A stretch of DNA of 64,000 bases from Thermoplasmata archaeon (GCA_049591535.1 JBAWFC010000008.1:9791-73790); one strand, 5' to 3'; positions 6,773 through 28,391 are shown, counted from the stretch's first letter. The notes: a model not told the origin generated them from the sequence alone. Numbers and translations are program-made.

Positions 6773-8290
6773 TCAGTACCCCCAGGAGCTTAGCCGATCG
6801 TCCACCGTGGCCTCGCTCGGAGGGGTGCCGCTCCGAGTCGGAATCCTCTCCGCGAGGCGCTTCACTTCCTGAACGAGGGCAGCAGTGGAGGGGTCTGAGT
6901 CGGCGAGCGGGACCTCTCCGTCGGTCCCGAGCATCCGTAGATGGAACGACGAGATGCGCCGGCGCTCAAGGTCCAGGACGACCTTCGAATCCCCGTCGTA
7001 TCCCACGGCGAATGCGTGGTCCCAGAACCGACGGCGTTCCGGGGAGCACGCGCGAGCGGCACCGCTGGAGTAGTCGAATCCATCGCCCATGGCGAGGACG
7101 GGTTCGCTTCGTTCCGCGCTCACGAGCCTCATCAAAGACCTCCCGCTCGGAAACGCCGACGGCAGGTGCGCCATCTCGAGGAACGTGGGAGCGACGTCGA
7201 TGAGGCTCGCCCACCCCGTCGCGACCTGGCCGCCCCTACGGTCGCCCGGCAGTCGGAGGACCAGCGGGATCCTCAGTAACTGCTCCGAGACCCCGAGCGA
7301 GTGGAACAGGAACCCCTTCTCGAGGAACTCCTGCCCGTGGTCGCTCGTCAGGACCAGGACCGTGTTCTCCCACCGGCCCGCCTCCCGGAACGAGGAGACG
7401 ACCTCCGCCACGCGGCGGTCCAGCGTCCGGAACGTCTCTTGATACATCGAGTGGAGTGCCGCGATCTCCTTCGGATTGGGCGTCCAATGTCCGGCGAGGA
7501 ACCCCGCCTGATCGGTCCGCTGCCGCGTCCGACCCAGGAACGAACCCAGCGACTCGGTCGGTCCCCGGCTCGGATAGTACGGCTCGTGAGTGTCGTGGAA
7601 GTTGATGAAGCAGAACACGGGGGCATCGGCCGGTTGGTCCATGACCCAGCGTCGTACGGTCGGCTCGACCCAGGGGGCCGAAACGTAGTGGAACCGAGCC
7701 CCCGGAGCGCGAAGGTGGGAGGCGACGTGATTCGCGAGGTTGAGGGTCCATGGGTACCGCATCAGGCTCGTGGTCGCCTGCCCGGCCATTCGCCACCATC
7801 GACCCTCGGGGGCCCGCAGGGTCCTCCCTACCGCGATGCCGTGGGAAGGAAGGGTCTGACCGGGGACGTGGATCATCTTCTCCCACCAATCCCCCCAGGC
7901 AACGGACCCGAATCCGCGGGTCATACCGAAGTTCGGGCTGACGAACCCGTTCGAGGAGGCGCTCAGCGTGCGGTACCCCGCCGCGCTGAGCCGTTCGGAA
8001 AGCGTGGACACGTTCCCGGGGAGGTCGCTCGTCCCCCGCCGGTTCACTCCGTGCTCCCAGGGGTACAGTCCGGTGAAGAGGCTGGCGTGGCTCGGGATCG
8101 TCCACGGTGCCGGGGCGACCGATTTCGGAAAAACGATACTGTGGGATTCGAGCTCCTGCGTGAACGGCATCGGGACTCCGCCCGGATGTCCTACCCCAGG
8201 GAAGTCCGCCCATCGCGCCGCATCGAGCACGATGATGAGGAAGTTCGGCCTCGCCCCGGGCCCCGGGGTCACGTCGGTGGTCACGGCCAC
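6773..8290 (-). CDS. Sulfatase-fold (alkaline-phosphatase superfamily) enzyme with Thr in the nucleophile position; cytoplasmic (no signal peptide)
   Basis: It has the sulfatase-family layout: NFLIIVLDAAR (metal-binding Asp) and LTSDHGQEF. The C-x-P-x-R formylglycine motif is replaced by W-T-I-P-S-H-ASLFTGLYPWEHG, with the Thr codon at 8099-8101. The C-terminus is ...DDRLSSWGY. Confidence 0.85.
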   Translation of the reverse strand: MAVTTDVTPGPGARPNFLIIVLDAARWADFPGVGHPGGVPMPFTQELESHSIVFPKSVAPAPWTIPSHASLFTGLYPWEHGVNRRGTSDLPGNVSTLSERLSAAGYRTLSASSNGFVSPNFGMTRGFGSVAWGDWWEKMIHVPGQTLPSHGIAVGRTLRAPEGRWWRMAGQATTSLMRYPWTLNLANHVASHLRAPGARFHYVSAPWVEPTVRRWVMDQPADAPVFCFINFHDTHEPYYPSRGPTESLGSFLGRTRQRTDQAGFLAGHWTPNPKEIAALHSMYQETFRTLDRRVAEVVSSFREAGRWENTVLVLTSDHGQEFLEKGFLFHSLGVSEQLLRIPLVLRLPGDRRGGQVATGWASLIDVAPTFLEMAHLPSAFPSGRSLMRLVSAERSEPVLAMGDGFDYSSGAARACSPERRRFWDHAFAVGYDGDSKVVLDLERRRISSFHLRMLGTDGEVPLADSDPSTAALVQEVKRLAERIPTRSGTPPSEATVDDRLSSWGY

Positions 8291-8436
8291 GATCGCGTTC
8301 TCCTCACGACCGCGAACTCCGCCTCAGTCGGCCCTCCACGCTTCCGCTTCTTCATGAGCCTATCCGAGGACCGAGCTTCGGACCCCGTTCGAATCCGGTC
8401 GCACCCGGACCTTCTGACCTCCGCGCCGAGCGTATT

Positions 8437-9894
8437 TCAATTCTTGCGCGCGTGGTCGGACGGCCGGTCGACGGGGCCGGAGGCGCGGGGTAGGGGGGGC
8501 CGGCCGAGGAGGAGCAGCTCGCGGACGGCCGTTTCCGCCCGGCCGAGCCGCTCGCGGTACGCCGCCGCGGACCGTGGGCCCGCGCGTCGCACCATCTCGA
8601 CGGCCGCGTCGAACGCGGCTCCCATGCCCACTGCGTCCCCGACGGGGAAGGGCGAGACGCGGACGTCGAGCGCGGTCGCGAGCTCCCCGAGCTGTGGCAG
8701 GTCCGGCGCCACGACAACCAACCCCGCGAGGGCGCCGATGGTCATCACGCCCGAGAGTCCACCGGTGGCGCGATAGGGGAGGACCAGCAGGTCGCTCGCG
8801 AGGAACAGATCGAAGACCCGTTCCTCTGGCACCGGACCGACGAACCGAGTTCGGTCCGATGCAAACTCCCGTCGCGCCGCGTCGAACGTGGCCTGATACT
8901 CCGGGAACGCGGGATTCACCGCGCCGGCAACGGTCACCCGGGTGCCGGGCGAGCCCCGGACGCGCCCTGCGATGGCGCGAAGAAACCCAACGAGGTCCTT
9001 TTGCGGTCCCCAGAAGCCGAAGAACAGGACGCGTACTTCGGCGTTGGGAGCTTCCGACGGCGGGGCGGATTCGTCGGGGTGCGCCTGGGCCGCAGGATAG
9101 ATCCCTTCCATGTACGGCAGCGTGAGCGATTTCACGGCGAGTCCCAGATTTCGCTCGATCGCGATCCGCTGGCTCTCGAGAGGCACGACCGTGGTTACGT
9201 GTCGGATCAGGAACCCCTCCAGAATTCGTGCGAGCCGGACCTCAATCGAGCCCTGAGCGTACCCGAGTCGCTGCACGTCCTGGGTCTCGACCAGATTGTG
9301 GACGTAGGCGAGAGTGGGCTTTCCGGAAAACCGGCGGACGAACACCGGCAGGACCAGCCCCAGCGCGTTCACCAAGGGACGGCGGCCGAACGATGTTACG
9401 TAGATGTTAAAGATGAACAAGTCCGTGTGAGGCGTCGCCCTCAGCATGCGGAGCAGCGTGCCGACCAACGTCCCGAGCCGGTCGTACTCCCACGTGGGAT
9501 GGAGAACCACCCGGGACGAGTCGAATCCGGGCGGAAGTCTCGAGTTCGTGTTGACGAACAGGTCGACGCGGCCGACGTCGGGATCTCGGCTCAGAACCCA
9601 TACCAGAGAGGTCGACACCGAGCCCAACCGCTCCGACCTCGGGTAGAAGCTCGAGAAGAACGCGATCCGGAGCGGCGCCCGCGGGGAGCCGACGGGAGTC
9701 CCGTCTCGAGAGGTCGCTCGCCCCGGACCGCTCTCCTGGTTCAACGACGCACGCACCGCCCCTTCTCGCGCCCGGGCGACCCCGTTTCGCGGCCTCCTCC
9801 CTCTGACGCAGCCGTCCTTTACCTTGCCGGTATTAGATGTCCCGTCGCTTGCGCGACGACGGAGGCGAGGTCGAGCGGGGGGTTGGCACCCCAA
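8437..9894 (-). CDS. GT-B fold (GT4-like) glycosyltransferase, divergent
   Basis: The core starts at LRIAFFSSFYP. The C-terminal half follows the GT4 pattern (VLFFGFWGPQKD..., FVGPVPEERVFDLFLASDLLVLPY...), but the usual E-x7-E acidic residues are not obvious. The first ~75 aa are Arg-rich and probably not translated. An alternative in-frame GTG start lies at 9756. Confidence 0.75.
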   Translation of the reverse strand: MGCQPPARPRLRRRASDGTSNTGKVKDGCVRGRRPRNGVARAREGAVRASLNQESGPGRATSRDGTPVGSPRAPLRIAFFSSFYPRSERLGSVSTSLVWVLSRDPDVGRVDLFVNTNSRLPPGFDSSRVVLHPTWEYDRLGTLVGTLLRMLRATPHTDLFIFNIYVTSFGRRPLVNALGLVLPVFVRRFSGKPTLAYVHNLVETQDVQRLGYAQGSIEVRLARILEGFLIRHVTTVVPLESQRIAIERNLGLAVKSLTLPYMEGIYPAAQAHPDESAPPSEAPNAEVRVLFFGFWGPQKDLVGFLRAIAGRVRGSPGTRVTVAGAVNPAFPEYQATFDAARREFASDRTRFVGPVPEERVFDLFLASDLLVLPYRATGGLSGVMTIGALAGLVVVAPDLPQLGELATALDVRVSPFPVGDAVGMGAAFDAAVEMVRRAGPRSAAAYRERLGRAETAVRELLLLGRPPLPRASGPVDRPSDHARKN

Positions 9895-9935
9895 TCGAGA
9901 CGCCGATCGATGACCCCGGCCCCGTTTTGAGTGGG

Positions 9936-9942
9936 TTTATAA
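9936..9942 (+). promoter_or_regulatory. TATA-like box TTTATAA centred 27 nt upstream of the TTG start at 9966 (leaderless-type promoter)
   Basis: Read directly. It is the only AT-rich heptamer in the 71-bp divergent intergenic region, and its spacing to the start codon matches the archaeal TATA-to-TSS distance. Confidence 0.5.
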
Positions 9943-9965
9943 GCAATGACGTATAGCCGGGACTC

Positions 9966-10793
9966 TTGAAGCCCGGAATCAGCCTGATCGTGCCCGCCTG
10001 GAACGAGGAGGAGCGTATCCCGGCGACGCTCGCCAGATACGTAGAGACTCTCAAGTCGTACGGGGAACCGTACGAGATCATCGTCGTTGTGGACGGGGTG
10101 ACCGACCGGACCGCGGCGATTGCCCGGGGGATGGCGGACCAAGGGGTACGGGTTCTCGAGTACACGGCGCAGCTGGGGAAGGGCGGCGCCGTGGTCAGCG
10201 GACTGGCGGCCGCCCGGTACGACAAGGCCGGGTATTTCGATGCGGACGCGCCGGTCTCTCCGGAGGACATGCATCGACTCATCCGGGCCGTGGAACGGGT
10301 CGATTGCGCGATTGCCTCCCGCCGCATGCGTGGCAGCATCTCGAGCGGTCGTTCCCCCCTGGCTCGACGGTTGTTCCGAGTGTGTTTCAATATCCTCGCC
10401 CGCGTCGTCCTCGACCTGCCCTTCCGGGACACCCAGTGCGGGGCGAAAATGTTCCGGACCGCGGCGGTACGTCCGGTGCTGGGTCGGGTCAAACTTCGTG
10501 GGTGGGCGTTCGACGCCGCGATGCTGTTCGAGCTGCGGCGCCGCGGGGCCTCCTTCGAGCAGATTCCCGTCGCATGGAAGCACGACACCGGCAGCAAGCT
10601 GCCGCTCGCGGAGCAGGTGCCGGTGATGTTCCTTTCGGTGTTCTTCATTCGGATCGTCAATCACCGAGTGATTCATCGGCTGCCTCCGAAGGTCACGTGG
10701 TGGTTTGCGTCGAACTTCATGAAGCGCAGCACGGAGTCGACACAATCGCTGGAGGCGTCCCTTGCCGGACAGCCCCAGCGACCGTTCCCCTGA
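9966..10793 (+). CDS. GT2 dolichyl/polyprenyl-phosphate hexosyltransferase-like (AglD/Dpm1/ALG5-type)
   Basis: ISLIVPAWNEEERI ... VVVDGVTDRT ... YFDADAP (D-x-D) ... RDTQCGAKMF ... WAFDAAMLFEL is the classic Dol-P-sugar-synthase GT2 pattern. A C-terminal hydrophobic helix (VPVMFLSVFFIRIV) follows. The start codon is TTG. Confidence 0.85.
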   Translation: MKPGISLIVPAWNEEERIPATLARYVETLKSYGEPYEIIVVVDGVTDRTAAIARGMADQGVRVLEYTAQLGKGGAVVSGLAAARYDKAGYFDADAPVSPEDMHRLIRAVERVDCAIASRRMRGSISSGRSPLARRLFRVCFNILARVVLDLPFRDTQCGAKMFRTAAVRPVLGRVKLRGWAFDAAMLFELRRRGASFEQIPVAWKHDTGSKLPLAEQVPVMFLSVFFIRIVNHRVIHRLPPKVTWWFASNFMKRSTESTQSLEASLAGQPQRPFP

Positions 10794-11473: not shown

Positions 11474-13012
11474 ATGGGGCGTAGGATGACCGCAGGAGGA
11501 TCCGCGATCGGGAACTCCCCGGCCTCGCACCGGCACCCGAACGTCGTCGTCGTGGTACTGGATTGTATGCGTTCGATCGACTTTGCCGGCGGCTCCGACC
11601 CGGTGCCCGGCCTTCCGGCCTCGGAGAAGCTCCGGACGGAGTCCATGATATTTCCTCAGGCCGTCGCGCCCAGCCCGTGGACGATCCCGTCCCACGCAAG
11701 CCTCTTTACCGGGCTCTACCCCTGGGAACACCGAACGCACTATCGGGCAAGCCTGCTCATGGACCCCTCGGTGCCCACGTTGGCGGGCGCCTTTTCGGAT
11801 GCCGGCTATTCGTCCATCGCACTCTCGGCAAACGGCTTCGTCAGCCCGGACTTCCGCCTCACCAACGGGTTCGAAGCGGTCGGATGGGGAGACTGGTGGG
11901 AGCGCTACTTCCGCGTGCCGACGCGGACGCTGCCTCCCCGGGCGGAGCGGCTAGCTCCCACCCAACGGCTCCCGAGTGGCGCCCTGTGGCGGTCAATGAC
12001 GACGCGGGTGTCCTACACCCATCGCCTACCAGGCGCGTGGGACCTCTTGAACCGGGTTGCCCATCAGGTCCGCTGGCGGGGCGACCCACGGGCCCTGGCC
12101 GTCTCGCCGTGGATCGAGCCGACCCTGGACCGGTGGCTGACCGGTAAGCCCGTCGAGACGCCGGTCTTCTGCTTCGTGAACTACATGGAGACGCACGAGC
12201 CGTACCTCACCGACCCGGCGGTGGTCTCTCGCCTCGCGGCCTGGCTCCCGTACGCGGGCCAGCGCATCGACCGCACGAGCATCCTGACCGGAGACTGGAA
12301 GGCCAGCGCCGAGGACTTCCGGAGAATACGCGAGCTCTACCGCCAGTCCGTGCGACTGGCCGACCAGCGCCTCGGAGCCCTCATCGACGTGCTGAAGCGT
12401 ACGAATCGATGGGACAACACGGTGCTTGTGATCGTCGGCGACCACGGACAGGCGATCGGAGAGCATGGATTCCTCTTCCACGGGATCCAGCCGTGGGAGT
12501 CGATTCTGAGGGTTCCCCTCTGGTATCGCCGCCCGGACGGCCGGTTCGCCGGGACGATCGGTCAAGGGACCGCGAGCCTGGTCGATGTCGCCCCGACGGT
12601 CCTGGCGGACGCCGGGCTCGCTCCTGCGAGGGTCCAGTCCGGTGTACACCTCGGATCGCTCGCGGAGTCGCGCCGTGAGGGACCCGCCTACTCCGTGAGC
12701 GACGGGGTCCATCGGACCTCGATCGTCGGCGGCCAGGAGCGCTCCGAGGGGGTGATCCGCCTGGACCGCGTGTGGGTGACGGCCTTTCAGGGAGACCTGA
12801 AGATCGTCTGGGACTGCGGTCTCGGTCGAGCGACCGCCTACGACCTCCGGCGGGACCCGGGCGAGACGCTCGACGTGTTCGACGAGGGGTCGCCCGACAT
12901 GCTCCGACTCGCGTCCGAGGCCCGCCACCGAGCGGAACTGATGCAGAGCTCGGAGGCCGTGACGGAGTCGGTCGAGGTCGACGAGCGACTGCGATCGTGG
13001 GGATACACGTGA
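11474..13012 (+). CDS. Sulfatase-fold enzyme, paralogue 2, Thr nucleophile position; cytoplasmic
   Basis: NVVVVVLDCMRS, W-T-I-P-S-H-ASLFTGLYPWEH (Thr codon 11681-11683), IVGDHGQAIGEHG, and C-terminus ...DERLRSWGYT. It clearly aligns with 6773..8290. Confidence 0.85.
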   Translation: MGRRMTAGGSAIGNSPASHRHPNVVVVVLDCMRSIDFAGGSDPVPGLPASEKLRTESMIFPQAVAPSPWTIPSHASLFTGLYPWEHRTHYRASLLMDPSVPTLAGAFSDAGYSSIALSANGFVSPDFRLTNGFEAVGWGDWWERYFRVPTRTLPPRAERLAPTQRLPSGALWRSMTTRVSYTHRLPGAWDLLNRVAHQVRWRGDPRALAVSPWIEPTLDRWLTGKPVETPVFCFVNYMETHEPYLTDPAVVSRLAAWLPYAGQRIDRTSILTGDWKASAEDFRRIRELYRQSVRLADQRLGALIDVLKRTNRWDNTVLVIVGDHGQAIGEHGFLFHGIQPWESILRVPLWYRRPDGRFAGTIGQGTASLVDVAPTVLADAGLAPARVQSGVHLGSLAESRREGPAYSVSDGVHRTSIVGGQERSEGVIRLDRVWVTAFQGDLKIVWDCGLGRATAYDLRRDPGETLDVFDEGSPDMLRLASEARHRAELMQSSEAVTESVEVDERLRSWGYT

Positions 13013-13182: not shown

Positions 13183-14754
13183 TTACCCGGTGAATTCCCC
13201 CGGTTGGCCGAACCGGCGAAGGAACTTCTCCACCCCGGGAAGCTGCCGGCCGAGGACCCGCTCCGCCATTCGGACGGCGACCAGGTCTCCTTCGAGCACG
13301 CTTCGCGTGACGAGGATCGCGGCGAGGAAGACCAGGACGCCGACGATGTACATCGGGAACACGATCCACGCCGGAAAGTGGTACAGGCTCACGACGACGA
13401 ACAGGGGTATACCGGCGGCCAGCGAAAGGGCGAGCGGGAACACGAAGCTTCGGTGCAGGGGCCCAATCCGATGCGACCGGTGGAGCGCCAGGGCGCCCGC
13501 CGCAGGATACGCGATGCGTGCGATCGACCACGCGATCGCCGCGCCGATCAGGCCGTAGGTCGGAATGAGCGCGAAACTGAGGACGACGTTCGAGATCGCC
13601 GACACCGCGGTCGCGAAGAGGAGCGGTCGGGTCATCGCCATCCCCGCGAGCGCCGCGTTCACCGGGCCGAAGGCGACCGAGACCAGCGCGCACCCCGAGA
13701 CGATCGTCAGCGCCTCGGCGCCCGGAATGTAGGCACGTCCGAAGATCGCGCCGATCGACTCCCGGGGGAGCAGACCGAAGACCAGGAACATCGGGACCGT
13801 GAACACGAGCACCCACCGCCCGGCCGTCACGTACGCAGTGCGGATGCCGGCGAAGTCCTTGCTACCGGTCAGTCGGGCGGCGACGGGCATGAAGATGAAC
13901 GTCACTGACCCCGCCGCGATCAGGATCAGTCGACCGATGGTCATGATCGCCGAGTAGATCCCCACCTGGGCCTCGGGGCGGAACGCCCCCAGGATCAGCG
14001 TGTCCGCGTAGCCCGTCACGTAGGCGAGGGTCGTCACGCCCCAGAGCGACAACGAGAGCAGCCAGAGTCCGCTCGGAAGGTCCCTCGCCCGCGGGGCCGG
14101 GGGCACGTGTCGCTCAAAGCGCGCCCAGGCGTAGATGACGAGGGCCCCAAAGGCCACGAAGTTCGACGCCACCCAGGCGATCAGGGCGGCGGTCAGTTCG
14201 AGGTGGAAGTAGAACAGGATGAACACGAAGACCAGGAATGCCGCGGGCTGAAGGCCCTGGTTCAGGATCGCGTAGGGGACGGTGTCCTCGAACCCTTGGA
14301 AAATGGACGCGATGAACGTGCAGAGCAGCGAGAGTCCGATCGTCACGGAGAACATCTGGAAGACGACGATCAGGGTCGCCGGATCCGTCGGGGTGAAAAG
14401 CTCCGCCAGCGGCTGGGCGAGCAGATAGACCGAAAGCGACGTAACCACCGCGGCGGCCCCCGTTACCCATGCGGTCCAGGCGACGAGTCGCCGACGCACG
14501 GCGGGGTCCGGGTTCTCCGCGAGAGTTCGGGCGACCGCCTGGTGCAACCCCAGCAACGCGACGAGCGAAAGGAGCCCGGCGAACGACAGTCCGAGGTTGA
14601 AATCCCCGAACGCCGTGAGGGAGAGCCGCCGGGCGATCGCCACGCGGCTGATGAAGTTGAGCAGCAGCAGCAGGAAGGTCCCGACGACCATCGTCGCCGT
14701 TCCCCGGCCCAGGGAATCGATGGCCGAGCGACCCGCCTTAGAACTCCCTGCCAC
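13183..14754 (-). CDS. MOP-superfamily polysaccharide/oligosaccharide flippase (Wzx/RfbX/AglR-like)
   Basis: The protein is 523 aa and hydrophobic throughout (about 14 TM segments). Its N-terminus ...GRGTATMVVGTFLLLLLNFISRVAIARRLSLTAFGDFNL is typical of polysaccharide-biosynthesis (Polysacc_synt) flippases. Confidence 0.8.
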   Translation of the reverse strand: MAGSSKAGRSAIDSLGRGTATMVVGTFLLLLLNFISRVAIARRLSLTAFGDFNLGLSFAGLLSLVALLGLHQAVARTLAENPDPAVRRRLVAWTAWVTGAAAVVTSLSVYLLAQPLAELFTPTDPATLIVVFQMFSVTIGLSLLCTFIASIFQGFEDTVPYAILNQGLQPAAFLVFVFILFYFHLELTAALIAWVASNFVAFGALVIYAWARFERHVPPAPRARDLPSGLWLLSLSLWGVTTLAYVTGYADTLILGAFRPEAQVGIYSAIMTIGRLILIAAGSVTFIFMPVAARLTGSKDFAGIRTAYVTAGRWVLVFTVPMFLVFGLLPRESIGAIFGRAYIPGAEALTIVSGCALVSVAFGPVNAALAGMAMTRPLLFATAVSAISNVVLSFALIPTYGLIGAAIAWSIARIAYPAAGALALHRSHRIGPLHRSFVFPLALSLAAGIPLFVVVSLYHFPAWIVFPMYIVGVLVFLAAILVTRSVLEGDLVAVRMAERVLGRQLPGVEKFLRRFGQPGEFTG

Positions 14755-17863: not shown

Positions 17864-17867
17864 GGCG

Positions 17868-19883: not shown

Positions 19884-21126
19884 TAAAGGTCATCGTTTGA
19901 ATTCCGGCCTGGTCGATCGCAACGACCGCCGCCGGCAACGCAACGTAGTACAGGCCGGTGGAGTTCGAGTACGTCTGACCGACGGTAATCGCCCAGCTGA
20001 CGAACTGGACCAGCACCTGGGCCTTGTCGAGCGTCGGCGCGTACCCCTTGTCGGCGGCCTGGTAAACGTACAGGTAGATGAACGTCGCCAGCGGATAGTC
20101 CTCCGTTCCCTGCGCGTTGACCATGCTGACGTTGAACCAGCTCCCGTCGGAGGCGGGGAGGGCGGTCGTCGCCGTCTTGTCGGAGATCGCGGACGCGGTG
20201 CTCGCGAGCGTAGGCACGACGAAGGTCCCCTTCGGGTTCTGGACAGCCGCGTAGCCCGGCGGCGTGCTCGCGAGAAGCAGGTCTGTAAGGTCGCTGTAGC
20301 CGATGCTGTAGGTCGTCGTCTCGACGGTGGAGAGGACCGCGCTGTTTCCCTTCGCGGCCGTCTGCATCGGCGCGGAGGGCCAGCTGATCGAGATCCCCTG
20401 CCCGGGCCCGCCACCCGAAATGTTCCATGCACTGCTATCGTCCGAAAGGAAGTTCGTCAGTACGTACGTCGTCCCCGCGGCGTCGGACCGGTGGACCGTA
20501 TCGATCGTGGCATTCGGGAGGTCGACCCCCGCGTTGTTCGCCCGGATCGCCGAGTCGTTCCAGTTGGTGATCGTCCCCAGGTAGATGTCGGCAATGATGC
20601 CGCCGGTCAAGTTCACGTGGCCCGTGACCCCCGGGAGGTTGTAGATGATCGCGAGCGCCCCGGCCGTGACGGGGAGAGTGAGCGCCGTTCCGGGAAGCGC
20701 CGCGACGTCCGCCGACGTGAGCGGTTCGTCCGCTATCGCGAAATCGACCAGCGGAGGGTGCTCTGAAAAGTCGGTGATCCCAGTACCGGAGCCCGCGCCC
20801 GGGTAGTTCACCTGGTTGGAGGTTTGCTGCTGGAAGGAGGTTTCCCACTGGTCCATGAGAGGGATGGCAATCTGCGCGCCGTTCCCTTGGAGCGTCGTCC
20901 CCGTCGAACAGGTCCCCGGCTTCGACGACGAGGCAGTGAACCAGTTCTCCTCGTACCCCACCGCGACGGCCGCGACCACAAGGATCAACACGGCCAGCAG
21001 GGCAAAGATCCCGGCCCGGCTCTTCGAGCGCTTGATGGGCGGCATCAATGCGCCGCCGGAGGACGAGGCCACGGGCGCGGCGGGCGGAGCGCTCACGGGC
21101 GGCTCCTCCCGTCGGGGCCGAGACAC
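19855..21126 (-). CDS. pstS: Phosphate-binding protein PstS (membrane-anchored/lipobox-less, archaeal style)
   Basis: The N-terminal TM is IFALLAVLILVVAAVAV. The PstS-like core includes GAGSGTGITDF, DFAIADEPLT and YPLATFIYLYVY. It lies upstream of pstCA-pstB. The start is either GTG at 21126 or ATG at 21045. Confidence 0.85.
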   Translation of the reverse strand: MSRPRREEPPVSAPPAAPVASSSGGALMPPIKRSKSRAGIFALLAVLILVVAAVAVGYEENWFTASSSKPGTCSTGTTLQGNGAQIAIPLMDQWETSFQQQTSNQVNYPGAGSGTGITDFSEHPPLVDFAIADEPLTSADVAALPGTALTLPVTAGALAIIYNLPGVTGHVNLTGGIIADIYLGTITNWNDSAIRANNAGVDLPNATIDTVHRSDAAGTTYVLTNFLSDDSSAWNISGGGPGQGISISWPSAPMQTAAKGNSAVLSTVETTTYSIGYSDLTDLLLASTPPGYAAVQNPKGTFVVPTLASTASAISDKTATTALPASDGSWFNVSMVNAQGTEDYPLATFIYLYVYQAADKGYAPTLDKAQVLVQFVSWAITVGQTYSNSTGLYYVALPAAVVAIDQAGIQTMTFNGEAIPACG

Positions 21127-21454: not shown

Positions 21455-22006
21455 ATGCCCGAAGCCGCTGGCGCCGAGAGAGAAGGATTCGTCGTCTGGA
21501 TGGAGGGCCTATCGGGCGCGGGCAAGACGACGCTCTCGCGCGAGGTATCGACGCGGGTCCGGGGGATGGGGTGGAAATCGGAGGTACTCGACGGGGACGA
21601 GGTCCGCCGCATGTTTTCTCCCGAGCTCGGTTTCTCGAGGAGCGACCGGGAGTTCCATGCCCGTCGAGTGAGCTATGTCGCGAGACTCCTCGCCCGCAAC
21701 GGAGTAGCGGTCCTTGTCGCGATGATCACTCCGTACGAGACGTCGCGCCAGGCGGCGCGATCCGAGGTCGCCGCCCGGTTCACCGAAGTGTGGTTGAAGT
21801 GCCCCCTCGAAGTCTGTCGGAGCCGGGACCCGAAGGGGATCTACAAGCGGACCCAGGAGGGCGGTGTGAAGAAAATGACCGGTGTCGACGATCCGTTTGA
21901 GGAGCCTCTGAACCCGGATCTCGTGGTGGACACCTCCACGGATCCCGTGGGGAAGAGCGTGGAGCGGATTTTGGACCACTTGTGGATGGTTCACTTTCTT
22001 GGCTAA
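21455..22006 (+). CDS. cysC: Adenylylsulfate (APS) kinase, copy 1
   Basis: P-loop GLSGAGKTT, LDGDEVRR, LGFSRSDRE, ITPYETSR, RDPKGIYKR and MTGVDDPFEEP together form the full APS-kinase motif set. Confidence 0.85.
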   Translation: MPEAAGAEREGFVVWMEGLSGAGKTTLSREVSTRVRGMGWKSEVLDGDEVRRMFSPELGFSRSDREFHARRVSYVARLLARNGVAVLVAMITPYETSRQAARSEVAARFTEVWLKCPLEVCRSRDPKGIYKRTQEGGVKKMTGVDDPFEEPLNPDLVVDTSTDPVGKSVERILDHLWMVHFLG

Positions 22007-22075: not shown

Positions 22076-22612
22076 CTACGCTCGCGCAGGCCACCCGAGG
22101 CGTTCCAGTTCGGAGAGGACAAACTCCGCGCACTGCGCCGGAGTTCGTCCGACCGTCTCCACGCGGATGTCGGGAGCCGTGGGGACTTCGTACGGGTCGT
22201 CCACGCCGGTCATGTCGTGGACTAGGCCCTGATGGGCCTTCTTGTAGAGCCCCTTGACGTCGCGCTGCTCGCAGACGTCGATCGGAGTCGTCACGTAGAT
22301 CTCGACGAATCGGCCGATCTCGGATCGGGCACGGGCCCGGGACGTCGCGTAGGGCGAGATGAGCGCCACGATTGGGATCGCCCCGTTCCGAGCAAGGACC
22401 TTGGCGACGTACGTCACGCGGCCCGCGTGCGCTTCCCTCGCCTTTCGATCAAATCCAAGGTCCGAACTGAGACCCTGGCGGACCTCGTCTCCATCGAGTA
22501 GTTCGACGTTCCAGCCTCGCGCCCGCAGTAGCGGGGTGAGTTCCCGAGCAATCGTCGTCTTGCCGGCGGAGGGAAGCCCGGTGAGCCAGAGGCAGTATCC
22601 CTGGTGAGTCAT
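22076..22612 (-). CDS. cysC: Adenylylsulfate (APS) kinase, copy 2
   Basis: P-loop GLPSAGKTT, LDGDEVRQ, LGFDRKAREAH, ISPYATSR, RDVKGLYKKA and MTGVDDPYEVP are present. It is convergent with copy 1. Confidence 0.9.
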   Translation of the reverse strand: MTHQGYCLWLTGLPSAGKTTIARELTPLLRARGWNVELLDGDEVRQGLSSDLGFDRKAREAHAGRVTYVAKVLARNGAIPIVALISPYATSRARARSEIGRFVEIYVTTPIDVCEQRDVKGLYKKAHQGLVHDMTGVDDPYEVPTAPDIRVETVGRTPAQCAEFVLSELERLGWPARA

Positions 22613-22763: not shown

Positions 22764-23699
22764 TTAGCGGTATCCGTGCCAAGTAATCGTAAAGTCCGAC
22801 TTCCCGAAGAAGTAGCTGGACAGCGGTCCCGTCTTCTGGATCGTCTTTCCGCTAACGCCCCCGATCTGGTCGATGACGTAGTTGGTGACGTGCGACCCGT
22901 GGCTGCCGATTCCCGCGAACGTAGAACCAACGGTGTCCGCGCACGCGTAGAAGGTCGTGGTCCCGTAGTCGCTCAGCTTCGCGATTCCCCCGTTGACGCC
23001 TGGGGCCTCGGAGATGCACTCGGCCGAGCCGTCTACTCCGGTCTCGCAGCCATTCGAGTCGCAGACGGTGGGGTTCCCCGTGACCTGGAACGACGCGGCC
23101 TGATCGTCGGTGTCTCCGACCTGCAGCGTGTAGATTCCCGCCACTCCATTGTAGGACGCCGCCGGGTTGTAGAGGATGTAGGCCTGGAGGAAGTCTCCCG
23201 CGCCGACCGTCGACACGAGTTGAACGCTGTTGTACGGGTAGAACTCCCACCAGTCGTAGTACACCGGCGTCGCACCGGGAGACGAGCAGTAGGAAAGCGA
23301 TCCGGCTTGCTCCACCGTGCCGGTGCCGTATCCGTCGATCCCAACCCACGAGACCTGGTAGGTGAACCCGGAGGTCTCACCGCACGTTACGGTGGGGACG
23401 TTCCACTCCGCCGTGACCTCGTAAATGCTGCCGGAGGTCGCCGTATTGGCGTACCCGGCCCAGTTTCCGCTGTTCACGTGCTGGGCTGCCTGAACGGGTC
23501 CCCGCTGCATGGAGGCATGCATGGACGCCGTGATCGCTGCCAAGTTCGCCGAGATCGAATTCTCCTTCTCAGTGGTCTGGGCCGCCGGTGTCGCATGTAG
23601 TGCCGCTCCGGCAGCGACCACCGCAAAGCCGACCGACAAGACCATCGTTGCCGCTAGCACCAGCGAAGCTGCTACGCTCCACCAGCCCTTCGTCTGCAT
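22764..23699 (-). CDS. Secreted glutamic peptidase, family G1 (eqolisin / former A4)
   Basis: An N-terminal TM/signal is present. The G1 hallmarks are in order: NSGNWAGY, ...YQVSWVGIDGY... (the catalytic Gln region) and ...GSAECISEAP... (the position of the catalytic Glu, AEWIVE-like). The size and beta-sandwich-like composition also fit. Confidence 0.7.
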   Translation of the reverse strand: MQTKGWWSVAASLVLAATMVLSVGFAVVAAGAALHATPAAQTTEKENSISANLAAITASMHASMQRGPVQAAQHVNSGNWAGYANTATSGSIYEVTAEWNVPTVTCGETSGFTYQVSWVGIDGYGTGTVEQAGSLSYCSSPGATPVYYDWWEFYPYNSVQLVSTVGAGDFLQAYILYNPAASYNGVAGIYTLQVGDTDDQAASFQVTGNPTVCDSNGCETGVDGSAECISEAPGVNGGIAKLSDYGTTTFYACADTVGSTFAGIGSHGSHVTNYVIDQIGGVSGKTIQKTGPLSSYFFGKSDFTITWHGYR

Positions 23700-23717: not shown

Positions 23718-23726
23718 CTATATTTA
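23718..23726 (-). promoter_or_regulatory. TATA-like box (minus strand TAAATATAG) ~23-27 nt upstream of the peptidase ATG at 23699
   Basis: Read directly. It is an AT-rich island in an otherwise GC-rich spacer. Confidence 0.4.
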
Positions 23727-23924
23727 GTAGCCGGGCCTAGTCGTGACCGCGAAGCTACGGGACGCCCGTAGGTACCCGCTAACCTACGGGACCTCTGGAT
23801 TTTCCCATAGACTTCGGGAGACGGGCCCGTGCGCCCCCGTGCTCGGCCGTCTTCGACCATCCACGAGCCGTCGCGCATCAAACTCGGCCAGGGAAATCGC
23901 TCGGTCCGGCCGATGAGGGATTCG

Positions 23925-25334
23925 CTAACGGAAATGCGCGATAGGTCGTCCTTGAACGTTCGCGGGGACTGGAATCCCCATCAAGGATAGGATCGTCGGA
24001 CCGACGTCGATCAACTTCTCGGTCGGGCCGCGGACTCCCACCCCAGCCGCCGGGTTCGTGATCGAGTAGACCCCGTCGAACGAGTGCACCGAGTCGTCCG
24101 GTCCCGTGTCGTTCTCCGATAGGTAGAGCGTGTCGTAGCCCACGGTCCCGGCGGAGCGCCACGCCACGTTCCCGAAATAGACCATCATGTCGGGCGCATC
24201 GCCGCGAACTTCGTGGTAGACGCTCCGGGGAAGGCGCACATCGGGCTGGAGGGACACGCCGTCCGGCCCGCAGATCTTCCGCAGATCCCCCGTCAGTTGG
24301 GCCTCGAACTTGGGCAGATCCTTGGGGCGGATGACCCCTTCGGGCTCGCGGTCCTTGACGTTGTAGAAGATACGGGCGTAGTACCCGCCCGCGCCCCACG
24401 CCCGCGTCTTCGCCCAGTCGATGGCCGCCTTTTCGATCTGGGTCCCCGCCGGGGGCCGGGGCCCCTTGAGCGTGAGGTACCCCTTCTGGATCAGCCACTC
24501 GTTGATGCAGAAACCGCCGGCCATCGCCTGGCTGCCGTGGTCCGAGAGAAGGAGGATGCGCACGTCGTCGGCGACGCCGTCGGTCAGCGACCCGATCTCC
24601 GCGTCGAGCATCGAATAATACCCCTCCACGATCTCGCGGTACTTCGGGTTCTCCTCATAGCGCGGGTGTTTCGTGTCGAAATACTTCCAGAACGTATGGT
24701 GCAGGCGGTCCGGTCCGATCTCGTGGAGGGCAAAGAAGTCCCACTTCTCCTTCGCCCAGAGATGACGGGCGACCGCGAAGTGCTTCTTCGTCATCTGGGT
24801 GAGCTGGGCGCCGATCCGGTCGCGGTCCTCGGCGCGGAATGTCACGTCGAACTCGTAGTCGCCGGCCACTTGCTGGATCTCGTCCTTGAGGGTCGGGGGA
24901 AAAACGAAGTCCGTCGCCTTGTCCGGCGTCAGGAAATCGGAGATGTAGACGCCGTTCACCCGGGGCGGAGGGTATCCGGGCGGCATTCCGATGATACAGA
25001 CCCGCTTTCCCGCGCGCGAGAGATGGTCCCAGACCAGCGGCTGGAGGAGAGTGCGGGACGAGGGAATGTACGTCTCCCAGTAGGTGCCCGGCCGGCGGTG
25101 TCGGAACCCGTAGATGCCCAGCGTGCCGGGGTCCATTCCCGACCACATGACCGCCCAGGCGGGTACGGTGATCGGAGGGTCGGTACTGAGGAGCGTTCCG
25201 AAGGTCGATCGTTTGAGGAGTTCCTGGACGTGGGGCATCCGCGGAAGGAATCGGTCGAACAGCAGGCCGGGGGGAACGGAGTCGAGACCGATGGCGAGCA
25301 CTCGCGTCGGGGGGGAACCCATGACCGCCCCCAC
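23925..25334 (-). CDS. Alkaline-phosphatase-superfamily protein, type I phosphodiesterase/NPP-like (COG3379-type), cytoplasmic
   Basis: VLAIGLDSVPPG (metal-binding Asp), DPPITVPAWAVMWSGMDPG (Thr nucleophile position), LLLSDHGSQ and a conserved C-terminal half are present. There is no signal peptide. Confidence 0.85.
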   Translation of the reverse strand: MGAVMGSPPTRVLAIGLDSVPPGLLFDRFLPRMPHVQELLKRSTFGTLLSTDPPITVPAWAVMWSGMDPGTLGIYGFRHRRPGTYWETYIPSSRTLLQPLVWDHLSRAGKRVCIIGMPPGYPPPRVNGVYISDFLTPDKATDFVFPPTLKDEIQQVAGDYEFDVTFRAEDRDRIGAQLTQMTKKHFAVARHLWAKEKWDFFALHEIGPDRLHHTFWKYFDTKHPRYEENPKYREIVEGYYSMLDAEIGSLTDGVADDVRILLLSDHGSQAMAGGFCINEWLIQKGYLTLKGPRPPAGTQIEKAAIDWAKTRAWGAGGYYARIFYNVKDREPEGVIRPKDLPKFEAQLTGDLRKICGPDGVSLQPDVRLPRSVYHEVRGDAPDMMVYFGNVAWRSAGTVGYDTLYLSENDTGPDDSVHSFDGVYSITNPAAGVGVRGPTEKLIDVGPTILSLMGIPVPANVQGRPIAHFR

Positions 25335-25477
25335 GAAGACTCGCTCATAACCCTGACGCGGGAGCGGTAGGGCCCGATCCGGTCGGTGTACCGCCCGCGT
25401 CGATTCCGCGCCCGCCCCCGGCCCGATGGGGGGCCACAGGGTAATAGGCCCGCCATAGTTGCCGTAGGAGGAGCTAC

Positions 25478-26878
25478 TTGGCGGGGACCGGCGTGCGTCG
25501 ACGACTGTTGGTGATCGGTCTCGACGGGGTGCCTCCCGAGTTTCTCTTCGACCGGATGCGTCCGGTCATGCCGACCACGGCCCGGCTGCTCGACCGGTCG
25601 CTCCGGGCCCCGCTGCGGACCACCGACCCCCCGCTCTCGATCCCGGCGTGGCCGGTGATGTTCTCCGGTGTCGACCCCGGAACGCTGGGGTTCTACGGTT
25701 TCCGGCATCGGAAGGATCACTCGTACACCGAGACGTACGTCCCGACCTCGACCCAGATGCCGGTCCCCAGCGTCTGGCAGACGGTGTCGTCCGCGGGCCG
25801 GCGGGTGGCCGTGATCGGGATGCCGATGGGATACCCCCCGCCGATCGTCAACGGGCTGTTCGTCTCCGACTTCCTCACTCCGCCGGGAAGTCGGCCGTTC
25901 ACGTCGCCGCCCGAACTCGGCGGGGAGCTCGAAGCCAAGTACGGCCCCTATCCGTTCGACGTGGTCTTCCGTTCGAACGAGCGCGAGCGGCTGCTCGGCG
26001 AGATACTCCGGATGACCGAAACGCGGTTCCGCATCGCGGCGGACCTAGTGGCCCGCGAGCCGTGGGACCTGTTCGGAGTGCACGAGATCGGTTCCGACCG
26101 CCTCAACCACGCCTACTGGAAGTGCTTTGACGACCGGCATCCGGACTTCGTCCCCGGGAACCCGCACGCGGGGGCCGCTCGGAAGTTCTACGAGGTGCTC
26201 GACCGGGGGATCGCGGGTCTTCTCGCGGCCGCCGGCCCCGAGGCCGCGGTCCTCATCGTCTCCGACCACGGCAGCATGGCCATGCGCGGATGCTTCTGCA
26301 TCAACCAGTGGCTCGCCGAGAAGGGGTACCTCGTCCTCCGTTCACCGCCCGCTCCCGGGACTCCGCTCGAGAAGGCCGACGTCGACTGGGACCGGACGAC
26401 GGTCTGGGGCTCGGGGGGGTACTACGCACGGATCTTCTTCAATATCCGGGGCCGCGAGGCGCGCGGGATCGTGGCGCTCGACCAGGTGCCGGCCCTCCGT
26501 CGCCACCTCGAGGACGACCTCCAGCGGATCCCGGCCCCGGACGGAGAGATGCTGGACGTCGACCTGCTCGACCCCGCGTCGCTCTATCACGAAGTGCGGG
26601 GCGACGCGCCCGACCTCATGCTCTACTTCGGGGACCTGAAGTGGCGGTCCGCGGGAACGATGGGCTACCCTTCGCTCTTCCTTCGGGAGAACGACACCGG
26701 ACCGGACGACGCGGTGCACAGCTGGAACGGCGTGTTCGTCTGGTACGACCCCGAGCGGGAGGGACCGGCGGGGGAGCTGCCGACCCAGCAGATACGGGAC
26801 GTCGCGCCGACGATCCTCGAGTATCTCGGGGTCCCGCTCCCCGCGCACCTGCAGGGCCGACCGATCGTCCGGAGCTGA
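25478..26878 (+). CDS. Alkaline-phosphatase-superfamily protein, NPP-like (COG3379-type), paralogue; cytoplasmic
   Basis: LLVIGLDGVPPE, DPPLSIPAWPVMFSGVDPG (Ser at the nucleophile position) and LIVSDHGSM are present. It aligns along its whole length with 23925..25334. The start is TTG, preceded by GGAGGAG (25463-25469). Confidence 0.85.
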   Translation: MAGTGVRRRLLVIGLDGVPPEFLFDRMRPVMPTTARLLDRSLRAPLRTTDPPLSIPAWPVMFSGVDPGTLGFYGFRHRKDHSYTETYVPTSTQMPVPSVWQTVSSAGRRVAVIGMPMGYPPPIVNGLFVSDFLTPPGSRPFTSPPELGGELEAKYGPYPFDVVFRSNERERLLGEILRMTETRFRIAADLVAREPWDLFGVHEIGSDRLNHAYWKCFDDRHPDFVPGNPHAGAARKFYEVLDRGIAGLLAAAGPEAAVLIVSDHGSMAMRGCFCINQWLAEKGYLVLRSPPAPGTPLEKADVDWDRTTVWGSGGYYARIFFNIRGREARGIVALDQVPALRRHLEDDLQRIPAPDGEMLDVDLLDPASLYHEVRGDAPDLMLYFGDLKWRSAGTMGYPSLFLRENDTGPDDAVHSWNGVFVWYDPEREGPAGELPTQQIRDVAPTILEYLGVPLPAHLQGRPIVRS

Positions 26879-26900
26879 AACCGACCGGCCGCCGGGGTCG

Positions 26901-28391
26901 CTAGTCGTATCCCCACGAACGCAGCCGCGCGTCGAGTGCGACCTCGGGAGCCGCGGGGCGGCTCGACGCCTCGCTCTGGCGGGCGGCCTCCTGCGCCTCG
27001 TACGGCCGGAAGACGTCGTCCCGAACCTTCTGCGCCTCGACGCCGACGAGCCGCGTCGCCGGCACGAGGTCCGGGTCCCCCGAGACCTTCCAGCGGAGGA
27101 CTTCCCCCGAAGCGAGGTCGAGAACGAACTTCTCGTCGCCCCGGTACGCCGCCAACTGGCGGCGGTTCCACGGCTGGTCCACGCGGATCCCACGGAGCGA
27201 GCGGTTCGGGTCGGAGGCCGGACCGCCCTCGCAGAAGACGGTCCCCGAATCCGGAGCCGTCACGGAGAACGGGAACGGGGCGTGGCCCGCGTCGTCGTAG
27301 GGCACGCCGCCGGAGGCGACCGCCTTGATCCACGAATCGAGCTCGCAGAGGCTCACCCAGCGATCGACGCGCCGCGGCACCGAGAGGTTCGCCGGGGGCG
27401 ACACCACGAGCGGCACCCGGGTGATCGAGTCGGTCGCCCCGCACCCGTGGAAGACGTTGCCGCTCTCGCCGAAAGATTGGCCGTGGTCGGCGGTGACGAC
27501 GACCATCGTCCGGTCCCGCTCTCCGTGCTGCTCGAGCAGCGCGAGCAGCCGGCCGATCTTGGCGTCGGCCTCTTCGATCGAGCGGACGTACCCCGCGACG
27601 AGCGCGTCCCAGTCGACGTGGTCCTGCAGGCCCGGGACCGCGAGCAGGTAGAACCGGGGGGTGTGCATGTAGGCCCGGCCGAGAAGCCCGGGGGTGTGGC
27701 CGTTGTCCACGAGCTCGTACGGTTCGTGGACGTTCACGAAGTTGAGGAACGAGTAGAACGGCCGGTCCGTCGCCCGCTCCCGGAGCCAGTCCCCGAAGTA
27801 GCCGAGTGTGAACTCCCCGCAGACGTCCGCCTTGTAGGCGACCTCCTGCGGATGGTTCAGCATCGTGAGCGGGGCGACCAGGGGAGGGAGCTTCTCGACG
27901 AGCTTGAGCACCCGCCGGGAGTAGAGGAAGTTCGCGTGCCCGAGGAGGCTGTTCGCCACCGTCCGTTGCTCGTCGGAGATCCCGATCCGTCGGGATCGGC
28001 GGAGGTCGAACCCTTCCTCCATCCCGTACCCGCCGACGAGATGGACCATCTCGCTGAACATCGCGGTCTCGTACCCGGAGCGCTTGAGGCGCGTCGCGGT
28101 CGTGTCGGGGAACGGGACGCCTCGACGGAACGTCCGGAGACCGTGCACGTTGGGGTAAGAGCCGGTGAAGATCGAGATGTGCGAGGGAACGGTCCAGTTG
28201 GCGGGGGCGACCGCTCGGGGGAACGCGGTCCCCTGCGCCGCGAGCGCGTCGATCACGGGAGTCCGCGCGACCCGGTCGCCCTCACTCGTCCGGAAGTTCT
28301 TCGCGCGAGCGCAGTCGAGGATGATGGTGACGATGTTGGGGGAACGACCTCCGCCCGAGGAGGGCGGAGACCCGCTGGAGGGACCCGTCAT
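26901..28391 (-). CDS. Sulfatase-fold enzyme, paralogue 3, Thr nucleophile position; last gene of the coupled operon
   Basis: NIVTIILDCARA, W-T-V-P-S-H-ISIFTGSYPNVHG (Thr codon 28191-28193), VTADHGQSFGESG, and C-terminus ...DARLRSWGYD. I prefer the ATG at 28389-28391 because it forms an ATGA overlap with the upstream stop. The longest ORF starts at 28409. Confidence 0.85.
   Translation of the reverse strand: MTGPSSGSPPSSGGGRSPNIVTIILDCARAKNFRTSEGDRVARTPVIDALAAQGTAFPRAVAPANWTVPSHISIFTGSYPNVHGLRTFRRGVPFPDTTATRLKRSGYETAMFSEMVHLVGGYGMEEGFDLRRSRRIGISDEQRTVANSLLGHANFLYSRRVLKLVEKLPPLVAPLTMLNHPQEVAYKADVCGEFTLGYFGDWLRERATDRPFYSFLNFVNVHEPYELVDNGHTPGLLGRAYMHTPRFYLLAVPGLQDHVDWDALVAGYVRSIEEADAKIGRLLALLEQHGERDRTMVVVTADHGQSFGESGNVFHGCGATDSITRVPLVVSPPANLSVPRRVDRWVSLCELDSWIKAVASGGVPYDDAGHAPFPFSVTAPDSGTVFCEGGPASDPNRSLRGIRVDQPWNRRQLAAYRGDEKFVLDLASGEVLRWKVSGDPDLVPATRLVGVEAQKVRDDVFRPYEAQEAARQSEASSRPAAPEVALDARLRSWGYD

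Follow-up and report, generated by a model that had tools for sequence, protein, structure and literature searches.

Three genes in a 64,000-nucleotide stretch of a Thermoplasmata archaeon genome (GCA_049591535.1, JBAWFC010000008.1:9791-73790, hereafter called the window) encode proteins with a sulfatase-type fold in which a threonine stands where sulfatases carry their catalytic formylglycine. We refer to them as proteins A, B and C. On balance we consider it probable, if by no great measure, that they are sulfotransferases acting on lipid-linked glycans, as Agl30 and Agl31 of Halobacterium salinarum are, and that they use 3′-phosphoadenosine-5′-phosphosulfate (PAPS). This reading is the best supported one because four observations converge: the fold itself, an archaeal precedent with the same type of C-terminal tail, the presence of genes for PAPS formation in the same island and near relatives, and the lack of canonical sulfotransferases among the open reading frames scanned. 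The relevant features, with positions counted from the first letter of the window, are the following:

6773..8290, minus strand: protein A, 505 amino acids (aa), sulfatase fold, Thr64 in the nucleophile position
8099..8101, minus strand: codon ACG for Thr64 of protein A, within W-T-I-P-S-H
6776..6796, minus strand: tail RLSSWGY of protein A, with the stop codon directly after it
11474..13012, plus strand: protein B, 512 aa, sulfatase fold, Thr70
11681..11683, plus strand: codon ACG for Thr70 of protein B, which aligns with the formylglycine cysteine of solved sulfatases
12986..13006, plus strand: tail RLRSWGY of protein B, followed by a final Thr
26901..28391, minus strand: protein C, 496 aa, sulfatase fold, Thr67; last gene of a translationally coupled operon
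28191..28193, minus strand: codon ACC for Thr67 of protein C, within W-T-V-P-S-H
26907..26927, minus strand: tail RLRSWGY of protein C, followed by a final Asp

An earlier note on this DNA had described three open reading frames with a sulfatase-family scaffold, a threonine in the motif position, a shared RL(R/S)SWGY C-terminus and no signal peptide. The reading frames indeed translate in this way, the three threonine codons lie exactly where they had been placed, and the translated proteins end in RLSSWGY, RLRSWGYT and RLRSWGYD. Protein B shares 38% identical residues with A and 27% with C. The longest reading frame for protein C reaches a GTG at 28409; the ATG at 28391 is the more plausible start because it overlaps the upstream stop codon. 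Inspection of the N-termini of A, B and C revealed neither a signal peptide nor a transmembrane (TM) segment: the first beta-strand (NxxxxxLD) begins at residues 15-24 and nothing hydrophobic precedes it, which leaves no room for a signal peptide, and the proteins are predicted to be cytoplasmic. The window has a G+C content of 67.6%, and the best database relatives of its proteins stem from metagenome-assembled Thermoplasmata archaea.

Fold and active site of the three proteins

Proteins A, B and C match the Pfam family Sulfatase (PF00884) over their full length with 97-112 bits (cutoff 25). PF01663, the family of nucleotide pyrophosphatases/phosphodiesterases (NPP), scores lower (46-57 bits), covers two short stretches of each protein and is not the best-scoring full-length family for any of them. 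The N-terminal motif stretch corresponds to positions 2-62 of the PF01663 profile, and the likeness to the T-F-P-N-H motif of NPP that had been pointed out previously is therefore real: both groups share the pattern T-x-P-x-H-x-x-(L/I)-x-TG-x-(Y)P and a D...D-H metal site. Nevertheless, the overall fold and the C-terminal subdomain of A, B and C are sulfatase-like, and true PF01663 proteins are encoded separately in the window at 23925-26878. No NCBIfam model reaches its cutoff for any of the three proteins, and the weak matches to EptA/MCR/LtaS models are limited to the region of the D-H-G motif.

An AlphaFold2 model of protein B, calculated with a 67-sequence alignment, reached a predicted local distance difference test value of 91.5 and a predicted TM-score of 0.92. 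When this model was compared with the Protein Data Bank (PDB) by Foldseek, the top 50 matches were without exception S1 sulfatases or phosphonate monoester hydrolases (PMH), with the cytoplasmic choline sulfatase (6g5z/6fny, E ~3e-23, TM ~0.6) as the best and PMH (4uph/2w8s) and carrageenan sulfatase (6pt4) among the other leading entries; as a group, these leading matches lie at E ~1e-23 and TM ~0.6. A comparison with NPP, LtaS and EptA had been proposed earlier; none of these occurs among the 50 matches listed, and in a phmmer search against PDB sequences LtaS appeared marginally (E ~1e-3). These results place the predicted scaffold with the sulfatases and not with LtaS, EptA or NPP, despite the NPP-like nucleophile motif. 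Type I sulfatases in the wider sense (the choline sulfatase BetC and PMH; 6fny, 6g5z, 2vqr, 2w8s, 4uph) provide the best matches in fold as well as in sequence, share the two-subdomain architecture, including the C-terminal subdomain, with the window proteins and likewise have no signal peptide.

The nucleophile column was inspected in two ways. In the phmmer search against PDB sequences, 'SPWTIPSHASLFTG' of protein B was aligned to 'TGLCSPSRAAMFTG' of carrageenan sulfatase 6pt4, and in 6pt6 and 6ptk, the C84S and C84A mutants of this enzyme, Ser and Ala stand in the same column. A 67-sequence family profile aligned the motif stretch of B to 'SSPLCAPARASFMAG' of choline sulfatase 6fny and, in addition, to the corresponding motif of a PMH (2vqr). 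Because these alignments agree in placing it there, the threonine is assigned, at the level of aligned sequences, to the column of the formylglycine cysteine, and the histidine to that of the arginine in C/S-x-P-x-R. The latter motif is absent from A, B and C and replaced by W-T-[IV]-P-S-H. The earlier conclusion that these proteins cannot be formylglycine sulfatases thus stands, as does the identity of the residue in the nucleophile column, and a formylglycine-generating enzyme is neither needed nor possible.

Further residues set the window proteins apart from type I sulfatases. In the profile alignment, the Lys/His pair of sulfatases (G-K-x-H) is replaced by A-N-G (A119/G121 in B) and the second sulfate-binding lysine (W-F-K-M) by an invariant histidine (L-F-H; H336 in B), so that H74, A119/G121 and H336 take the place of the cationic set that binds the sulfate group. 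The conserved WGY/LGY tail is a further difference. On the other hand, the window proteins retain the metal motif D-H-G along with one aspartate near the N-terminus (D-Q/D-C rather than D-D), just as choline sulfatase and PMH do.

It is at this point that phospho-group chemistry has to be considered, with the threonine serving as a phospho-acceptor nucleophile like that of LtaS, EptA/MCR-1, OpgB and NPP. The proteins would then decorate lipid-linked glycans with phosphoglycerol, phosphoethanolamine, phosphocholine or a sugar phosphate or, alternatively, hydrolyze a polyprenyl-diphosphate or nucleotide by-product. We regard this as rather unlikely, although a number of observations fit it. Judged by their residues, A, B and C possess a metal site of the LtaS/EptA/OpgB type together with the threonine (T70, D30, D323 and H324, all invariant), and the phosphoryl-transferring members of the alkaline phosphatase superfamily are marked by this combination of Thr nucleophile, Asp/Asp-His metal site and additional conserved histidines. 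H336 follows D323 by 13 residues, a spacing that we take to be that of the second-site histidine in MCR-1. The exchange of the sulfatase Arg, Lys/His pair and Lys for His, Ala/Gly and His, the PF01663 match of the motif stretch, the weak NCBIfam matches around D-H-G, PF04185 phosphoesterases and a HAD phosphatase near relatives, and a PstSCAB operon within the window can all be cited in its favor. LtaS, EptA/MCR-1 and OpgB also belong to PF00884, have conserved histidines in comparable positions and transfer groups to envelope glycoconjugates via a covalent Thr intermediate. However, they combine an N-terminal multi-span membrane domain with an extracytoplasmic catalytic domain and use lipid donors, whereas A, B and C have no such membrane domain, are soluble and predicted to reside in the cytoplasm; the marginal sequence similarity to those enzymes (E 1e-3 to 1e-5) is confined to the D-H-G region, while the best matches in structure and sequence are true sulfatases. 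Genes for CDP-alcohol or other phospho-donor pathways were not seen, and the sole functionally tested proteins of this kind, Agl30 and Agl31, are sulfotransferases. The PstSCAB operon was rejected as a mark of a phosphate-related function, since PstS is absent from all 80 related loci that were characterized (see below); for the same reason its adjacency here is probably coincidental.

Conservation of motif and tail and the haloarchaeal precedent

The motif W-T-[IVL]-P-[SAG]-H is present in 118 of the 120 best database homologs, and nearly all of these end in [RL]L.[SA]WGY followed by zero to one residue. Invariant columns in the 67-sequence alignment A1 (B numbering) comprise D30, R33, W69, T70, P72, H74, G80, P83, G111, N236, H241, D323, H324, G325, H336, P348, L506, W509, G510 and Y511. 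Given this conservation among homologs, motif and tail are not due to chance and appear from the alignments to be under strong selection. We take the C-terminal L-x-x-(W/L)-G-Y as a family signature and can only guess that it serves oligomerization or lets the proteins dock onto the membrane or onto a partner protein within it.

A catalytically dead sulfatase-fold scaffold that binds lipid-linked glycans or organizes an assembly complex would also lack the canonical nucleophile and cationic residues, and the invariant tail could be its docking peptide. We nevertheless deem this explanation highly improbable: D30, D323, H324, Thr70 and three histidines are invariant across archaea and bacteria at 25-30% identity, which argues for a working active site under selection.

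How widely the combination of T-x-P-S-H motif and tail occurs, a survey suggested in the earlier note, was determined by scanning one genome per GTDB species. At least 543 loci encode relatives, with LGY replacing WGY in Halobacteria and several bacterial phyla. The best 80 loci were characterized; 39 of them stem from Thermoplasmata, about 18 from Halobacteria, one from Methanobacteriota and about 22 from bacteria, and most encode proteins with the Thr motif and a tail of the RL-x-x-LGY type. The family defined by T-x-P-(S/A)-H and L-x-x-(L/W)GY thus spans Thermoplasmata, Halobacteria and bacteria, including Chloroflexota, Acidobacteriota, Planctomycetota and Spirochaetota. Some Thr-motif relatives at bacterial loci (L042, L053 and L081 versus L058 and L061) have lipoprotein-like or signal-like N-termini; several bacterial relatives with such N-termini lack the LGY tail, others with signal-like N-termini retain it. 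Judged from these N-termini, the family is not uniformly cytoplasmic outside the archaea.

A tblastn search against plasmids retrieved haloarchaeal relatives with 25-30% identity that are encoded inside glycosyltransferase (GT)/Wzy clusters, among them three paralogs in a GT cluster on pNG700 of Haloarcula marismortui. The alignments run through the tail, and the proteins carry W-[TS]-L-P-S-H and RL-x-DLGY(L). A profile built from six of these plasmid homologs yielded 120 haloarchaeal proteins, 104 with WTLPSH and all 120 with the LGY tail; a closely corresponding set of invariant residues is retained. Among the database proteins collected, thirteen end in HLEDLGYL, and every one of them carries WT[LF]PSH.

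This ending leads to the only proteins of this kind for which function has been studied. Agl30 (VNG1056C) and Agl31 (VNG1057C) are N-glycan sulfotransferases encoded in the N-glycosylation cluster of H. salinarum (Zaretsky et al., mBio 2025, PMC11980604). Their annotation was that of alkaline-phosphatase-domain or arylsulfatase-family proteins, in structure they match the sulfatases 5G2U and 6HHM best, and Agl31 is soluble (PMC11980604). Deletion of agl30 or agl31 leads to the loss of one sulfate each from the tetrasaccharide bound to dolichol phosphate (DolP), deletion of both genes eliminates both sulfates except for a basal residual sulfation, and expression of either gene in Haloferax volcanii results in sulfation of a glycan that normally carries no sulfate (PMC11980604). 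The published primer table discloses how the two proteins end: the gene-specific portion of primer rev-pRV-1057 reads, as its reverse complement, CTG GAG GAG TTG GGG TAC ACG, i.e., L-E-E-L-G-Y-T for Agl31, and that of rev-pRV-1056 encodes H-L-E-D-L-G-Y-L for Agl30 (PMC11980604). As read from these reverse cloning primers, both sulfotransferases therefore carry an L-x-x-LGY tail, and Agl31, just like protein B, has one extra residue.

Proteins A, B and C resemble Agl30 and Agl31 in several respects. S1 sulfatases are the nearest solved structures in both cases, the genes lie in several paralogous copies within archaeal glycan-assembly clusters, the window proteins are by prediction soluble and cytoplasmic as is Agl31, and the tail pattern L-x-x-LGY plus zero to one residue, which is our own derivation from the primers and not a published motif, recurs as RL(R/S)SWGY plus zero to one residue with Trp in place of Leu. 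The differences are the lineage (Halobacteria versus Thermoplasmata) and this Trp; the comparison was made via fold family, tail and gene context. An exact scan of the published primers against genome and metagenome contigs gave no match to the agl30 and agl31 genes. We assume that the species genome in the scanned collection is that of the type strain 91-R6, which would explain this failure. The N-glycosylation cluster of 91-R6 differs from that of NRC-1/R1 (PMC7002104). The N-termini MAESGSD and MAGNLRG were found neither among the proteins listed by the search with the six-homolog haloarchaeal profile, nor among the listed matches of a 36-sequence haloarchaeal profile against 1.84 billion representatives, nor among those of a search with P0250, a protein that shares the last eight residues of Agl30. 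For Agl7 of Haloferax volcanii (HVO_2046), no statement of its protein family was found in the papers searched. It is presumably annotated as sulfatase-like and may be a further relative of the window proteins.

Sulfate activation and the case for sulfuryl transfer

The window encodes the enzymes that form PAPS from sulfate via adenosine 5′-phosphosulfate (APS):

21455..22006, plus strand: APS kinase 1 (adenylyl-sulfate kinase, makes PAPS), TIGR00455, 196.9 bits (cutoff 138.7)
22076..22612, minus strand: APS kinase 2, PF01583, E 1.3e-55, convergent with APS kinase 1
52591..53757, plus strand: ATP sulfurylase with PUA_2 and ATP-sulfurylase domains

The two APS kinases (CysC) are arranged tail to tail between the PstSCAB operon and the cluster of alkaline-phosphatase-superfamily genes and are about 50% identical, as judged via their matches on a shared homolog. 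ATP sulfurylase (Sat) is adjoined by a ComA-type (2R)-phospho-3-sulfolactate synthase fused to a C-terminal winged-helix domain of the MarR/TrmB type (54141-55388, plus strand), here in an apparently non-methanogenic Thermoplasmata archaeon. No window open reading frame that was scanned matches the Sulfotransfer families of Pfam, i.e., canonical sulfotransferases.

The window proteins were compared by tblastn with the best 80 loci. At L009, L010, L011, L027 and L066, a gene for ATP sulfurylase is found no more than 10 kb away, and at L073 the same holds for APS kinase. These six loci all belong to the 39 Thermoplasmata loci, and there are no fewer than five distinct gene arrangements among them. 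For the Thermoplasmata flanks, 607 kb in total, about 1.2 such genes would be expected at the most; six or more have a Poisson probability of at most 0.0016, a figure that overstates independence because L009 and L010 are syntenic. NPP-like proteins are encoded at 12 of the 80 loci, PstS and ComA at none. At L066, an ortholog of C (57% identity) is directly followed by an NPP-like gene and then by sat, and at L004, which has sat within 10 kb as well, and at L009 and L010 the order is NPP-like gene, sat, two GT2 genes, a gene for a membrane protein of the 855 aa type described below and then the ortholog of B.

These results bear on the view taken in the earlier note, that phosphoryl chemistry is far more likely. 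That note had weighed sulfate-ester hydrolysis against phosphoryl transfer and had overlooked sulfuryl transfer as a third option. Its preference is at odds with the S1 sulfatases as structural matches, with sulfotransferases that carry the same type of tail, with two APS kinases and an ATP sulfurylase in a window whose scanned reading frames include no canonical sulfotransferase, and with sat or cysC at 6 of 39 Thermoplasmata loci as opposed to PstS at none of 80.

The linkage to sat and cysC would also fit formylglycine-independent sulfatases that rely on the threonine or on metal-bound water and trim sulfate from glycan intermediates in the cytoplasm, or hydrolases that act on APS, PAPS or 3′-phosphoadenosine-5′-phosphate (PAP) and thereby regulate sulfation. 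The overall sulfatase fold and a histidine that, by motif position and not by alignment, is equivalent to the general-acid histidine of sulfatases in H-E-P-Y agree with such a role, and promiscuous sulfatase and phosphatase activities are common in the superfamily (PMH, alkaline phosphatase, NPP). Still, we hold it to be improbable. All three cationic sulfate-binding residues are lost, the presence of three to five paralogs per glycan island, coupled to glycosyltransferases, is better suited to substrate-specific decorating enzymes, and deletion of agl30 or agl31 removes sulfation instead of increasing it.

If A, B and C are sulfotransferases, they would be group transferases of the cytoplasm, built on a sulfatase fold, which modify dolichol-phosphate-bound glycans at the inner face of the membrane while the GT1, GT2 and GT4 enzymes build the glycan; the flippase and the large membrane proteins, possibly of the GT-C type, would come into play afterwards. 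ATP sulfurylase and the two APS kinases of the island would supply PAPS, and the paralogs would differ in the sugar or position that they sulfate, as is the case for Agl30 and Agl31. Thr70 would be activated by a divalent metal bound to D30, D323 and H324 (B numbering) and could take over the sulfuryl group from PAPS and pass it on from a covalent sulfo-threonine to a sugar hydroxyl in a ping-pong reaction, comparable to the phospho-threonine in LtaS and EptA; alternatively, Thr70 may position the donor for direct transfer. H74, H241 and H336 would stand in for, or correspond to, the Arg, His and Lys with which hydrolytic sulfatases bind and protonate sulfate esters. Substitution of formylglycine by threonine would remove the elimination step of the aldehyde hydrate that renders sulfatases irreversible hydrolases, as expected of an enzyme that must not hydrolyze its own product. 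What would remain is a metal-activated alkoxide, which could shuttle the sulfuryl group from PAPS to the sugar hydroxyl.

A number of points speak against this proposal. A sulfo-threonine is a low-energy alkyl sulfate, and the second half-reaction would be chemically demanding. The sulfatase Arg and both Lys are lost, and a threonine together with several histidines is the signature of phosphoryl-transferring members of the superfamily. The kinship of A, B and C with Agl30 and Agl31, which we infer from fold family, primer-derived tail, haloarchaeal intermediates and context, has to bridge an identity of 25-30% between the window proteins and their haloarchaeal relatives. The evidence on Agl30 and Agl31 is genetic; in vitro activity, nucleophile, donor and mechanism are not reported, and the paper makes no mention of "threonine," "formylglycine" or "PAPS" (PMC11980604). 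Within 10 kb, sat or cysC was seen at none of the haloarchaeal and bacterial loci, 41 in number, and is likewise missing at 33 of the 39 Thermoplasmata loci. The ATP sulfurylase of the window could, due to its position next to the ComA-type synthase, serve another pathway. This last possibility is countered by the occurrence of sat beside NPP-like and GT genes elsewhere and by the absence of ComA from all 80 loci, and a role of sat and cysC in sulfur assimilation by the fact that the window showed neither a PAPS reductase nor a sulfite reductase. In favor of sulfuryl transfer, N-glycans that carry sulfate are known from Thermoplasma (review PMC11625862).

Sulfated surface glycans are common in archaea, and the enzymes that sulfate them were unknown before the genetic identification of Agl30 and Agl31 in 2025. 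Enzymes of this kind may form a large conserved family that extends well beyond haloarchaea and is recognizable by three testable features, i.e., threonine in the formylglycine position, histidines for Arg and Lys, and an invariant C-terminal tail. We go one step further with a tentative proposal, for which the odds fall somewhat short of even: the family with T-x-P-(S/A)-H and L-x-x-(L/W)GY would constitute a widespread, mechanistically new class of sulfotransferases, a sulfatase scaffold run as a transferase, which may employ sulfo-threonine or metal-templated transfer instead of the PAPS-binding Rossmann-like fold of canonical sulfotransferases. Should this be true, biological sulfation would have a second structural solution, and a hydrolase scaffold would have been turned into a transferase via a single nucleophile swap. 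Many "missing" sulfotransferases of sulfated prokaryotic glycans would be accounted for, thousands of "sulfatase" or "arylsulfatase A" annotations would stand for the opposite function, and the practice of inferring degradation of sulfated polysaccharides from sulfatase counts in metagenomes would be affected.

Gene neighborhood of the island

Genes for glycan assembly, for large membrane proteins and for NPP-type proteins surround A, B and C:

4006..6573, plus strand: membrane protein of 855 aa, 9-10 TM segments; gene convergent with A
8437..9894, minus strand: GT1-family glycosyltransferase, directly upstream of A
9966..10793, plus strand: GT2 glycosyltransferase, upstream of B
13183..14754, minus strand: Polysacc_synt protein (Wzx/AglR-type flippase), convergent with B
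23925..25334, minus strand: PF01663 (NPP-type) protein 1, T-V-P-A-W motif
25478..26878, plus strand: PF01663 (NPP-type) protein 2, S-I-P-A-W motif, adjoins C
28388..30805, minus strand: membrane protein of ~805 aa, ~10 TM segments; stop codon overlaps the ATG of C (ATGA); 40% identity to the 866 aa paralog
30802..33402, minus strand: 866 aa membrane protein with ~10 TM segments, weak PTPS_related match
33399..34649, minus strand: GT4 glycosyltransferase, GTGA overlap with the gene for the 866 aa membrane protein
34775..36229, minus strand: GT2 glycosyltransferase, upstream of GT4 on the same strand

That each of the three genes sits among glycan-assembly genes and that one of them terminates a coupled operon had been noted before and is borne out by this arrangement: GT1, GT2, GT4 and flippase genes adjoin the three genes, and the operon runs in the order GT2, GT4, 866 aa protein, ~805 aa protein and C, with start-stop overlaps (GTGA, GTGA and ATGA) joining the last four. 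The GT2 gene at 34775..36229 is probably the first gene of this operon. Orthologs of the 855 aa membrane protein are encoded directly upstream of the B orthologs at L009 and L010.

The large membrane proteins form a group of four, each ~800-890 aa long with ~10 TM segments and a C-terminal soluble domain of ~300 aa (4006-6573, plus strand; 28388-30805 and 30802-33402, minus strand; 36311-38992, plus strand). Three of them are paralogous, and two of these end in a similar E-W-(K/T)-I-L. None has an above-threshold match in Pfam, NCBIfam or PDB sequences, and searches of the 866 aa protein and of an NPP-like protein against PDB sequences returned nothing. The gene for an 872 aa membrane protein at a related locus shows a weak match to PMT_2. 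We take both PTPS_related and PMT_2 to be families of the Pfam GT-C clan, and on the basis of these weak matches the 866 aa protein may be a GT-C-type glycosyltransferase. At some related loci, a membrane protein of this ~800-890 aa type adjoins the sulfatase-like gene.

The NPP-type pair consists of two divergent proteins, each of which matches PF01663 in full length. Relatives of the pair adjoin sat or cysC and sulfatase-like genes at L004, L009, L010, L011, L066 and L073. The pair could recycle PAP or represent a second kind of enzyme that uses PAPS or APS. A phosphate ABC transporter is encoded at 17111-21126 (minus strand): PstS scores above the cutoff of TIGR00975, a fused permease of 671 aa that contains two BPD_transp_1 stretches probably corresponds to PstC-PstA, and the ABC ATPase is probably PstB.

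A series of genes at 39072-41330, 41497-43827, 43942-45855 and 47568-52550 (all plus strand) and at 14950-16854 (minus strand) encodes proteins that begin with a hydrophobic, signal-like segment and carry a TM anchor at the C-terminus. Two of them are 52%-identical paralogs of ~760 aa that match no family; the others are a Kelch propeller protein, a PKD-containing protein of 1660 aa and a PQQ/PKD protein. From their sequences, all of them are probably surface proteins. Kelch proteins also accompany the sulfatase-like genes at L005 and L006.

At the left edge of the window, an MNT-like nucleotidyltransferase and a HepT-like RNase (28-510 and 537-872, plus strand) form a pair of the toxin-antitoxin type, and a PIN-domain protein, likewise of the toxin-antitoxin type, is encoded at 1638-2108 (minus strand). 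Between the APS kinases and the NPP-like genes lies a gene for a member of Peptidase_A4, the scytalidoglutamic peptidase family (22764-23699, minus strand), which is mostly known from fungi and acidophiles.

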